Source: Escherichia coli | GTDB lineage: Bacteria; Pseudomonadota; Gammaproteobacteria; Enterobacterales; Enterobacteriaceae | Length of the DNA stretch: 64,000 nucleotides | Reading direction: 5' to 3' (one strand) | Assembly: GCF_003334785.1 (NCBI RefSeq) | Contig: NZ_QOWV01000008.1 | Part shown: piece after piece, positions 50,487-57,309 of the stretch | Position numbering within the stretch: the first letter of the stretch is position 1 | Layout: every line of letters begins with the position of its first letter | The notes under the pieces: model-generated | The model's input: the letters and a program-made list of their open reading frames with translations, nothing else | Told to the model about the DNA's origin: nothing | The model's database searches: none | Position numbers and translations under genes: made by a program

Positions 50487-51677
50487 CTATGCCGCATTCC
50501 CTTTCGCCATGGGAGCCAGTGCCGCAGGCAACTCTTTACCCAGCCCCTGCACCAGCGAATCTTGCGTAATTTCGCTGATCGATTTCGCGCCAGTCAGCGT
50601 CATCGCCACTTTCATCTCTTTTTCGATCAGATTTAGCAGGTTAGCTACACCCGCCTGGCCCGCTGTTGCCAGCGCATACAAGAAAGCACGACCCAGCAGT
50701 ACGGTGTCGGCACCGAGCGCAATCATACGCACGACATCAAGCCCGTTACGAATTCCGCTATCCGCCAGAATGGCTATATCACCTTTCACCGCATCTGCAA
50801 TAGCAGGCAGTGCACGGGCGGAAGAGAGTACACCGTCCAGCTGGCGGCCACCGTGGTTAGAAACCACAATTCCATCAGCACCAAAACGTACTGCATCGCG
50901 CGCATCTTCCGGATCGAGGATCCCTTTGATCACCATCGGGCCATCCCAGAAATCGCGGATCCATTCAAGGTCTTTCCATGAGATGGACGGATCGAAGTTA
51001 TTCCCCAGCCAGCCGATGTAATCTTCCAGTCCGGTCGGTTTGCCGAGATAAGCTGAGATATTACCTAAATCATGTGGACGACCGTTCAGGCCCACATCCC
51101 ACGCCCATTGCGGATGTGTCACCGCTTGCAAGTAGCGGCGCATTGCCGCGTTCGGGCCGCTCATACCTGAATGCGCATCACGGTAGCGTGCGCCCGGTGT
51201 CGGCATATCCACGGTGAAAACCAGCGTCGAACAACCCGCTGCTTTTGCTCGCTCCAGCGCGTTACGCATAAAGCCGCGATCGCGCAGTACATAAAGCTGG
51301 AACCACATTGGGCGCTTGATGGCTGGCGCGACTTCTTCAATCGGGCAAACGGAAACCGTCGAGAGAGTAAACGGAATACCATGCGCGTCCGCCGCTTTGG
51401 CTGCCTGAACTTCGCCACGACGCGCATACATGCCACACAAACCCACCGGAGCCAGTGCCACCGGCATCGACAATTTCTCATTAAACAGCGTCGTTTCCAG
51501 GCTTAAGTCGGACATGTTTTTCAGAATACGCTGGCGCAGCGCCACTTCTGACAAATCTTCCACGTTGCGGCGCAGCGTGTATTCAGAATATGCACCACCA
51601 TCCATATAGTGGAACAGGAACGGCGGCAGAATGCGTTGCGCTGCGGCGCGATAATCGCTGGCTGCGGAAATAATCAT
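50487..51677 (-). CDS. lldD: L-lactate dehydrogenase (FMN-dependent)
   Basis: 396 aa [29 protein letters not shown]... Confidence 0.95.
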
Positions 51678-52450
51678 GCGTTTTTCTCCCTCGAATGCTC
51701 ATTATGCTCACCGGGCAGGCGGGTAATCCGTGCGTGGCGAGCCTGATCTTCATCGAATCGTTTCATGGTGGTGTGAACAAAACTAAGGTGCGCCATCATT
51801 GCTTTACGCGCCCCGTCAGCATCACCGGCAAAAATGGCGTCAATGACAGCCTGATGTTGTTCGGTCAGTTGTGAAAAAACCGGTGGCACCAGATACATCC
51901 GCTGACGGCTATGCTTCACTGAGGATTGCAGGACATCGAAGAAACCGCGCATGGTTTGCAGCAGCACGATGTTATGTGAGGCTTCGGCAATCGCCAGATG
52001 AAAACGAACGTCCGCTTGTGAGGCGATATCCGGGTCTTCACTTAGCGTTGCTTCAAAGCAAAGCTGAATCTTTTCTTTGTCGCCAGGTGTGGCGCGCATT
52101 GCCGCATGCCATGCGGTGCTGGCTTCAATGGCGTAGCGGGCTTCCAGAATATCGAAACTGTAATCCGGATCATCGGCCATCAGTGTTTTTAGCGGCTGGA
52201 CGATGTTTTGCTCCGACCATGTGTCATGACGCCAGCGAATAAACGTCCCGCCGCCGCGTCGACTGAGCAGCACGCCTTCACTCACCAGTTTTGCCAGCGC
52301 CTCGCGCAGTGAATTACGTGATACGCCGAGTTGCATCGCCAGTTGGCGCTCAGCGGGCAACTTCATGCCCGCTTCCAGGTTTTTTTCATCAATCAGCGCC
52401 CGCACACGATCGGCAACCTCGTCTGACAGGCGTCTGGGTAAAACAATCAT
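51674..52450 (-). CDS. lldR: GntR-family regulator LldR
   Basis: 258 aa from [15 protein letters not shown]; start overlaps lldP stop (TAATG). Confidence 0.9.
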
Positions 52451-54105
52451 TAAGGAATCATCCACGTTAAGACATAAGCCTGAAGCGTGGTGATCACGCC
52501 CACTATACAGGTGAAGATCAGGCTGTGTTTGACAGTAAAGCGGAACAAATCAGACTCTTTGCCCACCAGGCCTACCGCCGCACAGGCGATAGCGATAGAT
52601 TGCGGGGAGATCATCTTACCGGTGACGCCACCGGTGGTATTGGCGGCAACCAGCAACAGATCAGAGACGCCAATTTGTTGTGCTGCGGTGGCTTGCAGCG
52701 CGGCGAACAGGGCGTTAGATGAGGTATCCGACCCGGTCAGGAATACCCCCAGCCAGCCGAGGAACGGCGAGAAGAAGGTGAATGCATGACCGGTGTGCGC
52801 CAGTGCCAGCGCCAGTGTTGATGACAGTCCGGAATAGTTCGAAATAAAGGCGAATGCCAGCACCATACCGATGGAGTAGATGGGCAGAGCCAGTTCTTTC
52901 AGCGTGCTGCCGAAGGTGCTGATAGCGTCAGACGGTTTCATCTTCAGCCAGACAATCGAGAGCAGTGCAGCAAACAGAATGGCGGTGCCGGTGGCAGAGA
53001 ACCAGTCAAACTTAAACACGGCGGCATAGGCTGTAGCCTCGCTGACCACTGGCGGCATACGGGCAACCAGTTTATCGAGGTACGGCACCGGAATATTGAT
53101 CACCCACTCATACAGCGCGCCACCCGATGCGAACAGGGCTTTAAACGGCGGGATACTCCACAGTGTTACGGTAGCTGTCAGGAACAGGAACGGTGTCCAG
53201 GCACGTAACACCTGACCCGCAGTGTAACCGGTGTGGGCCAGCGTCATATCAACCTGTGACGCCCCCAAATCACCAAAACGGAATACACGCACTGGCTGCC
53301 AGCGTTTGAGGAACAGCGTCAGGCAGAGCAGTGATACCAGCGAAGAGATAATGTCCGGCAGCTCCGGCCCAATGAAGTTAGAGCTAAGGTACTGAGCGAT
53401 GGCAAACGAGCCGCCCGCAACCACGACCGCAGGCCACGTCTCTTTGATACCGCGCCAGCCGTCCATAATCGCCATGATCCAGAACAGCACGATAATGGTC
53501 ATAAACGGTAGCTGCCGCCCCACCATCTGACCAATCTCAAAGCTGTCGATACCTGTTACCTGTCCGGCAACCAGGATTGGAATGCCCATCGCACCAAATG
53601 CCACTGGCGCGGTGTTAACAATCAGGCACAGCCCGGCGGCGTACAGCGGTTTAAAACCCAGGCCGACCAGCAATGCGGCGGTAATTGCTACCGGTGCGCC
53701 AAAGCCTGCGGCTCCTTCAAGGAACGCGCCGAAACAGAAACCGACGATCAGCATTTGCAGACGCTGGTCAGGGGTTATCGAAAGAATAGACGAGCGAATG
53801 ATGTCAAACTGCCCGGTTTTGACCGAGATCTTATAGACGAACACCGCTGCAATAATGATCCACGCGATGGGCCACAACCCGTAGAAGAAACCATAAACCA
53901 CCGAGGCCAGCGCGTTAGCGACCGGCATTTTATAGAACAGCAAAGCCACGGCAAGGGCGATTGCCACCGTCCACGAGGCGGCGACGTATCCTTTCAGTTT
54001 GAGCTTAATCAGCGCAAAGAAGAAAAACAGGATGGGAAGCGATGCTATCAGACTGGAAAGCCAGATATTCCCGGCGGGATCGTAGTTTTGTTGCCAGAGA
54101 TTCAT
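52450..54105 (-). CDS. lldP: L-lactate permease
   Basis: 551 aa from [13 protein letters not shown]; polytopic membrane protein. Confidence 0.9.
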
Positions 54106-54177
54106 TGCAGGTCTCCTGGAGTCCACGCACATCGTGTAATGAGTCTGTTGCTCATCTCCTTGTCACACGTTGTGTAA

Positions 54178-54194
54178 AAGTGGCACTGCCAATT
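54178..54194. promoter_or_regulatory. Candidate LldR operator O2
   Basis: AAGTGG-cactg-CCAATT, one mismatch from the O1 palindrome. Confidence 0.45.
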
Positions 54195-54303
54195 GTGTTG
54201 TGTAGGGATAATGACAATGAATGGTTAACTAAATGTTATGTATTGGCAACATTGATGTGAGTTTTAATTGGGAAATTGTGAACCAGAGGTCAGATAAGCG
54301 AAG

Positions 54304-54320
54304 AATTGGTAGGGCCAATT
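54304..54320. promoter_or_regulatory. Candidate LldR operator O1
   Basis: Perfect palindrome AATTGG-taggg-CCAATT, about 126 bp upstream of O2. Confidence 0.55.
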
Positions 54321-54335
54321 CTTGTGGGGGGAGAT

Positions 54336-54378
54336 GTCTGGTAAAGAAAAGGGCAATCCTCATCAGAGAATTGCCCTT
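54336..54378 (-). terminator. Intrinsic terminator of yibL
   Basis: aagggcaat / attgccctt stem followed on the minus strand by a T-rich run. Confidence 0.5.
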
Positions 54379-54397
54379 AGGTTGTTGATCCAGAGCG

Positions 54398-54441
54398 CCT
54401 TATCTTGCCGGATGCGGCGTGAACACCTTACTCGGCCTATA
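54398..54441. repeat. REP (repetitive extragenic palindrome)
   Basis: GCCGGATGCGGCGTGAACACCTTACTCGGCCTA matches the REP family. Confidence 0.65.
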
Positions 54442-54476
54442 GGAATGTGCAGAATCACCCTGTAGATACTGTGTTC

Positions 54477-54839
54477 TTAAAACGCGGTCTTTGAAAACCC
54501 AGTCATCTCCTGCAGGCCCATTTCGCGGCCCAGTGCGGTCATTGGGTGCACAACGACCAGTCCGCAAACACTTTTCTTCAGCTTGCCCATATCAGCCTGC
54601 TCTTTTTTGGTAATTGCGCGCTGGAATGGCATCTTCATCAGCTTCTGTGCTTCTTTACTCAGTTTTTGGCTATGAACTTCACGCAGGCGAGCAATTTCTG
54701 CTTCCAGCGTGGCTTTCTCTTTTTCCAGCTCGGCATATTTGTCTGCGGCTTCAACCAGCGAAAGATCGGCCTGCTGGTGGCGGATGGCGTCCAGGCGATC
54801 GCTGAGACGTTTGATTTCGTTTTTTTCGACTTCTTTCAT
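54477..54839 (-). CDS. yibL: Uncharacterised protein YibL
   Basis: 120 aa [35 protein letters not shown]... Confidence 0.8.
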
Positions 54840-57084: not shown

Positions 57085-57309
57085 TTAACCTTCATCAATG
57101 TTTTTACCCGAGAGGGCTGGGGTGAGGCTTTTCCCTCACCCAAACCCTCTCCGTGAGGAGAGGGGCAGCGCCGGATGCGGCGTAAGCGCCTTATCCGGCC
57201 TACAAGAACGTGCAAATTCAACAAATTGTGATGCATCCTGTAGGCCTGATAAGCGTAGCGCATCAGGCAATTAACCCCACCTTCTCCATGTGGAGAGGGT
57301 GGGATTGGA
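57085..57309. repeat. BIME-type repeat cluster between mtlA and mtlD
   Basis: Two opposed REP units (GCCGGATGCGGCGTAAGCGCCTTATCCGGCCTAC and TGTAGGCCTGATAAGCGTAGCGCATCAGGC) flanked by GGGTGAGG/CCCTCACCC and CCCTCTCC/GGAGAGGG hairpin modules. Confidence 0.75.

Follow-up and report, generated by a model that had tools for sequence, protein, structure and literature searches.

Upstream of the L-lactate permease gene lldP, the window (the whole 64-kb stretch of Escherichia coli DNA analysed here) carries a pair of inverted repeats. The locus raises the question of which regulator these repeats serve, and of whether they act together through a DNA loop or independently of one another. The combined evidence makes it very probable that LldR dimers bind them as operators O1 and O2 of the lldPRD promoter in E. 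coli, with a looping mechanism attached as a proposal. The identification of O1 and O2 as LldR operators, taken on its own, is near certain; the pair has been described and studied in detail before, and its identification here adds nothing new.

Gene names follow the RefSeq annotation of the E. coli strain H3 locus, which is 100% identical to the window, together with the list of open reading frames. The features of the region are as follows:

51674-52450, minus strand: lldR, the 258-aa GntR/FadR-family regulator binding O1 and O2 (annotation and translation)
52450-54105, minus strand: lldP, L-lactate permease, first gene of the operon (RefSeq annotation and open reading frame list)
54113-54117, minus strand: lldP Shine-Dalgarno sequence AGGAG, 7 nt 5' of the ATG at 54105 (GGAGA invariant in an alignment of 19 genera)
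54178-54194, minus strand: O2, proximal LldR operator within the transcribed leader (one-mismatch palindrome)
54221-54249, minus strand: probable lldPRD core promoter (TTGCCA at 54249-54244, 17-nt spacer, AACCAT at 54226-54221)
54224-54238, plus strand: ArcA-box-like direct repeat GTTAACTAAATGTTA, overlapping the -10 element, site of anaerobic repression (sequence and conservation)
54304-54320, minus strand: O1, distal LldR operator upstream of the promoter (perfect palindrome)
54341-54378, minus strand: intrinsic terminator of the upstream unit, here yibL but ehaG in the majority of E. coli strains (stem-loop at 54378-54349 and T-rich tail)
54407-54440, plus strand: REP unit GCCGGATGCGGCGTGAACACCTTACTCGGCCTAT, between the yibL stop codon and the terminator (exact core and naRNA4 match)
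54477-54839, minus strand: yibL, upstream neighbour on the same strand as lldP (annotation and open reading frame list)

Read along the lldP strand, the order is therefore yibL stop codon, REP unit, terminator, O1, a conserved promoter block, O2, Shine-Dalgarno sequence and lldP ATG. The operon also contains lldD on the minus strand, and lldR is encoded within the very operon that LldR controls.

The palindromes upstream of lldP match the published LldR operators

The plus strand of O1 reads AATTGGTAGGGCCAATT (AATTGG-TAGGG-CCAATT, without mismatches), which corresponds to AATTGGCCCTACCAATT on the lldP strand. O2 reads AAGTGGCACTGCCAATT on the plus strand (AAGTGG-CACTG-CCAATT), with a single mismatch that changes the third base from T to G, and AATTGGCAGTGCCACTT on the lldP strand. 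Whether measured between starts or between centres (54186 and 54312), O1 and O2 are separated by 126 bp, with a 109-bp spacer in between, and their centres lie 207 bp (O1) and 81 bp (O2) 5' of the lldP ATG. A preliminary description of this DNA had reported a perfect and a one-mismatch AATTGG-N5-CCAATT palindrome about 126 bp apart upstream of lldP. The figure proved exact, positions 54178 and 54320 being the outer edges of the two repeats, and both repeats fall within the yibL-lldP intergenic region, ahead of the minus-strand genes lldP-lldR-lldD.

At no more than one mismatch, O1 and O2 are the only instances of the motif in the 64-kb window, for an expectation of 0.33, and two sites at this stringency were reached in 3 of 100 shuffles. 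Given a first site, the probability of a second one within 150 bp on either side is approximately 0.0015 (300 x 0.33/64000, at the shuffle rate). When two mismatches were allowed, the window contained five sites for 4.9 expected, which is no excess over chance, indicating that the signal resides in the quality and position of the O1 and O2 copies. Both sequences conform to the 17-bp palindrome of the LldR box, AAnTGGTCnGACCAnTT, represented in E. coli by AATTGGCCCTACCAATT and AAGTGGCACTGCCAATT, and both are located in the regulatory region directly 5' of lldP, the operon of which also comprises lldR and lldD.

In the genomic SELEX study of Anzai et al. 2023, the two LldR boxes assigned to lldP are AAtTGGcCctACCAaTT and AAgTGGcactgCCAaTT (Table 1 of PMC10272880). 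The first is the reverse complement of O1 in the window and the second is O2, letter for letter. In that study, lldP yielded the highest genomic SELEX peak (62.9, versus at most 13.8 for seven others), gel shifts were obtained with LldR on the lldP region, and LldR boxes were listed at glcC/glcD as well; the same paper states that its two lldP boxes match both sites of Aguilera et al. 2008 (PMC10272880). The paper on the Laconic sensor likewise cites the O1 17-mer from Aguilera et al. as the sequence needed by LldR (PMC3582500). The two sites have been described as flanking the transcription start (PMC3424551). Without L-lactate, repression of lldPRD requires both O1 and O2, and activation requires the upstream site, at which the LldR-lactate complex activates (PMC3424551, and the summary of the LldR/L-lactate model in PMC5412874).

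Through these papers quoting Aguilera et al. 2008, both 17-mers match LldR boxes (PMC10272880, and PMC3582500 for O1), as anticipated when the repeats were first assigned to LldR, and no published coordinates contradict the placement of O1 and O2. Compared with the lldPRD operators of E. coli K-12 (Aguilera et al. 2008, J Bacteriol 190:2997), the 17-mers are identical, the neighbours are the same (yibL on one side and lldP-lldR-lldD on the other), the spacing is 126 bp and an ArcA operator lies in between. No functional difference separates the two loci, which carry the same element in different strains and both lack ehaG.

Organization of the lldPRD promoter region

The probable core promoter was placed by conservation, using an alignment of 19 enterobacterial genera in which the TTGC and AAC.AT columns of its hexamers are invariant or nearly so. 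These conserved -35-like and -10-like hexamers sit between O1 and O2, the side of the transcription start being taken from the literature (PMC8689689, PMC3424551). A generic sigma-70 scan detected no promoter between O1 and O2, a result that fits a weak, activator-dependent promoter. On sequence grounds, an alternative pair of hexamers, CTCACA and TAACAT with a 17-nt spacer, might conceivably serve in place of the pair chosen here.

In the published numbering of the lldPRD region, O1 reportedly extends from -105 to -89 and O2 from +22 to +38. Such numbering gives 126 bp between the operator centres and predicts a transcription start near G 54215, with a leader of about 110 nt. Combined with the sequence, the predicted start would leave O1 about 97 bp 5' and O2 about 30 bp 3' of the probable start. 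The position of 54215 fits the published account of a stretch "-80 to +1" between the operators, holding the ArcA operator and the -35 and -10 elements (PMC8689689).

Outside the promoter hexamers, the blocks that are invariant or nearly so in the 19-genus alignment are the TGG/CCA cores of O1 and O2 (invariant in all 19 genera), TAACATTTAGTTAACCATT, the start region and the ribosome-binding site. Within TAACATTTAGTTAACCATT lie the ArcA-box-like direct repeat and the -10-like AACCAT, 17 nt past the -35. The ArcA-box repeat is conserved across the Enterobacteriaceae in this alignment. When four divergent E. coli alleles were checked for its pattern, only that of strain A22 gave no match. The repeat GTTAACTAAATGTTA agrees at 14 of 15 positions with GTTAATTAAATGTTA, which we take to be the ArcA consensus. 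Direct repression of lldPRD by ArcA has been reported, and the ArcA box has been defined as repeats with an 11-bp centre-to-centre distance (PMC3798270); the sequence in the window presents two TGTTA-like direct repeats 11 bp apart in this ArcA-repressed promoter.

Two further conserved elements were observed in the region. Directly 3' of O2 and outside the 17-bp box, all 19 genera share a conserved TTTACA flank (54173-54178; lldP strand CCACTTTTACA), which may represent an extended LldR contact or some other leader signal. Between O1 and the -35, two TCACA blocks (CTCACA and TTCACA on the lldP strand, at 54256-54260 and 54277-54281) are invariant in the 19 genera. They read TGTGA on the plus strand and roughly keep to the 11-bp register set by the ArcA-box repeats (54223 and 54234). 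These blocks could be extra ArcA repeats, a CRP half-site or an alternative -35; a complete CRP site was considered and rejected, given that its left half-site is poor and not conserved.

Terminator, REP unit and upstream breakpoint

Beyond O1, the strand transcribed from yibL can form a hairpin of 13 pairs (6 of them G-C) with a 4-nt loop, followed by the tail TTCTTTACCA. This combination of stem-loop and T tract on the transcribed strand, located 99 nt after the yibL stop codon, is that of an intrinsic terminator. The hairpin begins 29 bp past O1, in agreement with the earlier placement of a yibL terminator just beyond this operator. It is identical in O157:H7, where the gene upstream is ehaG.

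The REP unit that follows contains an exact copy of the 18-nt REP core, GCCGGATGCGGCGTGAAC, at 54407-54424. The REP-derived Rfam family naRNA4 matches positions 54397-54437 with its stem paired; at 27.3 bits (E = 0.004), this match does not reach the gathering score of the family. As in REP elements generally, the unit is an extragenic, imperfect palindrome of about 35 bp that is repeated, with a copy of the core also present at 57170. It differs at four positions from what we take to be the 34-nt REP consensus, and a scan of this consensus at up to three mismatches missed the unit at 54407-54440. The REP unit had been described as sitting immediately beyond O1; it does lie past O1, but with a gap of 87 bp "immediately" applies only loosely. 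A second and better preserved REP unit, GCCGGATGCGGCGTAAGCGCCTTATCCGGCCTAC, was observed at 57170-57203 on the plus strand, in the mtlA-mtlD intergenic region.

The segment from lldP to yibL is colinear in only 1263 of 5426 E. coli genomes. O157:H7 strain FRIK804 carries ehaG, encoding a trimeric autotransporter adhesin, upstream of lldP, and in another strain a YadA-like gene occupies this position. The homology of FRIK804 to the window stops inside the REP unit (at about 54420-54470 of the window), which suggests that ehaG is subject to a presence/absence polymorphism with its breakpoint at this element. With ehaG upstream of lldP in most strains, the "yibL terminator" would in those strains be the ehaG terminator.

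Conservation of the operator pair and of its spacing

Of 5426 complete E. coli genomes, 5421 carry the 171-bp operator region once, on the chromosome, and even the most divergent E. coli alleles sampled keep both boxes and the 126-bp spacing. The comparative analysis was extended to 80 lldP loci of Proteobacteria beyond E. coli, drawn from assemblies representing one genome per species. The box pair was identified 5' of lldP in 79 of these 80 loci, and every one of the 78 loci that extend far enough has a homolog of lldR directly 3' of lldP.

The spacing between the boxes is specific to clades: 123-126 bp in the Enterobacterales, 103-106 bp in Acinetobacter, 97-98 bp in Stenotrophomonas, 95-97 bp in Comamonas and 120 bp in Thauera. 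A distance of 125 or 126 bp was observed in 44 of the 79 pairs, and one locus (L015) presented boxes at -204 and -80, 124 bp apart. The loci of Acinetobacter, Stenotrophomonas, Comamonas and Thauera resemble that of E. coli in having paired LldR-type boxes 5' of lldP and, in all cases, lldR immediately 3' of it. They differ in their shorter, clade-specific spacing and in boxes that are nearer to the TGGT-N3-ACCA consensus than those of E. coli.

Over the 50 Enterobacterales loci the spacing varies by only 1-2 bp, despite the divergence of the spacers. The spacers of Serratia, Pantoea, Erwinia and Buttiauxella align to that of E. coli with identities of 0.54-0.63, no higher than shuffled spacers (0.59 on average); nevertheless, the boxes in these genera are still 124-126 bp apart. 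The preservation of spacing between operators whose spacer has reached background identity indicates that the distance itself is under constraint, and not just the sequence. In Dryocola, Buttiauxella, Serratia and their relatives, the annotated lldP start follows the centre of O2 by only about 50 bp, compared to about 81 bp here. With O1 and O2 still 125 bp apart, it is the length of the leader that varies in these genomes, and not the operator spacing.

We tentatively consider that the paired boxes may form part of an ancient lldP-lldR module, shared by the Gamma-, Beta- and some Alphaproteobacteria, whose spacing classes (approximately 125-126, 103-106 and 95-98 bp) have been selected independently of the spacer sequence; we regard this as possible, but on balance doubtful. 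The searches also returned an lldP locus with identical operators and 100% protein-level identity to E. coli in contig CALXDF010000207.1, from a metagenome-assembled genome labelled "uncultured Oscillospiraceae bacterium". This locus is most likely the result of E. coli contamination or mis-binning.

Looping or independent action of the two operators

Looping between the two sites has been put forward in the literature only as a proposal (PMC8689689, PMC7804116). In the proposed mechanism, the two bound LldR dimers would touch, looping out the 109-bp spacer and excluding RNA polymerase. Binding of L-lactate would then release the O2 contact, leaving O1-bound LldR in place as an activator. Further repression would be added by phosphorylated ArcA under anaerobiosis and by PdhR via the shared O1 site.

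The arrangement at lldPRD is reminiscent of the GalR (OE/OI), LacI (O1/O3) and AraC (O2/I1) systems, in which two palindromic operators bracket the promoter at a distance of about 9-12 turns and both are needed (PMC7804116). As in gal, expression of lldP is affected by HU, a loop-assisting protein, which represses lldP aerobically. Several differences should be noted: LldR belongs to the GntR/FadR family, whereas the other three regulators are members of the LacI/GalR or AraC families; looping by LldR is inferred, and none was seen in a lacUV5 library; and O1 doubles as an activator site once LldR has bound lactate.

The main rival to looping accepts O1 and O2 as real LldR operators and has each of them act by itself, with no loop between them. 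At about +30, O2 would serve as a roadblock or steric hindrance to RNA polymerase, and O1, at about -97, purely as an activator site. The conserved spacing could in this case be the sum of two constraints, one on the distance from O1 to the promoter, for activation, and another on the distance from the promoter to O2, for blocking.

The experimental data bear on both possibilities. A reporter library with LldR sites placed on the lacUV5 promoter revealed no looping-type synergy between distal and proximal sites (PMC7804116), as expected from operators that act independently; this library made use of a foreign promoter and genomic levels of LldR, which weakens its bearing on the native locus. 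Removal of 10 bp between O2 and the -10 abolished induction, which speaks for a loop, as does the repression by HU; removal of 10 bp between O1 and the -35 left sensing unaffected, which speaks against one (PMC8689689). The contrast between the two deletions, tolerated on the O1 side and not on the O2 side, is again in favour of independent action. Conversely, the requirement of both sites for repression (PMC3424551) is left unexplained by a simple roadblock at O2, and the constancy of the spacing to within 1-2 bp in 50 Enterobacterales loci with diverged spacers also argues against operators acting separately.

Helical phasing was considered as well. At 10.5 bp per turn, the 126 bp of E. coli correspond to 12.0 turns, in favour of a loop, but the spacings in other clades amount to 9.2-9.3 turns (97-98 bp), 10.4 turns (109 bp) and 11.4 turns (120 bp). 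These non-whole-turn spacings, found in Stenotrophomonas, Thauera and Azoarcus, do not support a universal same-face rule and are in line with independent action. Across the comparative set, the distance deviates from a multiple of 10.5 bp by no more than 1 bp in 60 of 79 loci, and in only about 5 of 9 when counted per clade; once relatedness is considered, the helical-phase test across clades is not convincing.

Given these results, we regard the independent action of the two operators as a substantial possibility, if one that falls somewhat short of probable, and place the looping out of the lldPRD promoter by LldR dimers at roughly even chances. The preliminary description had presented the pair as consistent with the looping model. 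The conserved 126-bp spacing is indeed compatible with a loop, and looping itself remains a published proposal.

Alternative identities of the palindromes

The overlap of O1 with a site for the pyruvate sensor PdhR raises the prospect that O1 and O2 are primarily PdhR operators, and not those of LldR. A PdhR genomic SELEX peak has been mapped at yibL/lldP, the O1 17-mer has been reported as a PdhR box (13 of 14 positions), and lldPRD mRNA increases 3.3-fold in a pdhR mutant (PMC7660256). PdhR boxes and the operators of the GlcC/LldR type in the FadR subfamily (ATTGGT-N3-ACCAAT) have a palindromic core in common, TGG(T)...(A)CCA, and PdhR does bind O1. PdhR binding is recorded at O1 only, however, and the centre of this operator in E. 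coli is GGCCCTACC, versus GGTCnGACC in the consensus. Furthermore, lldP gives by far the strongest LldR genomic SELEX signal (PMC10272880), and lldR, itself in the operon, accompanies the box pair in each of 78 loci. A primary role as PdhR operators is hence very improbable; PdhR and LldR are paralogs with overlapping specificity, which points to cross-regulation instead of an alternative identity.

It has similarly little probability that the O1 palindrome is the hairpin of a plus-strand small RNA, STnc380, and not a DNA operator. The Rfam model RF02055 (STnc380) matches positions 54279-54387 on the plus strand over its full length, with 36.4 bits and an E-value of about 1e-5, and its consensus was seen to include the LldR O1 palindrome, with the arms paired as a stem, as well as the yibL terminator hairpin. 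The score is, however, well under the gathering threshold of 60 bits for this family. No covariation was detected in the arms of O1 and O2 in the 19-genus alignment, where the score equalled that of the shuffled control. Departures from the palindrome break the pairing without compensation, and one position of O2 is unpaired in 16 of 19 sequences. The lack of covariation and the broken pairs are the signature of a protein-binding palindrome, and not of an RNA helix. In addition, the match terminates 3' in a hairpin that, on the plus strand, leads into AGGTTGTTG and not into a U tract, whereas the minus strand forms a proper terminator, and no RF02055 match was obtained in the Salmonella diarizonae locus. 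A search of the available literature for STnc380 returned no paper describing it, and only STnc3800 was found. On the sub-threshold score, the absence of covariation, of a U tract and of a Salmonella diarizonae match, the small RNA was rejected; the STnc380 family seems to describe this intergenic DNA, on the strand opposite lldP.

Finally, the notion that O1 and O2 are chance matches in AT-rich intergenic DNA, to which the motif count at two mismatches in the window (no higher than chance) lends itself, can be set aside as negligible in view of two sites for 0.33 expected at up to one mismatch, both within a single 143-bp stretch, and was already refuted by the conservation of the pair in 79 of 80 orthologous loci and by the published LldR binding data (PMC10272880).

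Implications for lactate regulation

The LldR operator pair represents textbook-level regulation of lactate use, and forms the core of widely used lactate biosensors. For the annotation of this intergenic region, an RNA family that models a DNA operator and a terminator, as STnc380 appears to do, calls for caution with automated RNA assignments. The survey of spacings reported here sets bounds on the operator distance for biosensor design and offers a natural series on looping. If the spacing classes reflect loop geometry, and not promoter layout, the natural variants would constitute a spacing series with which LldR looping can be tested, and clades with spacings that depart from whole turns would then need another loop topology.
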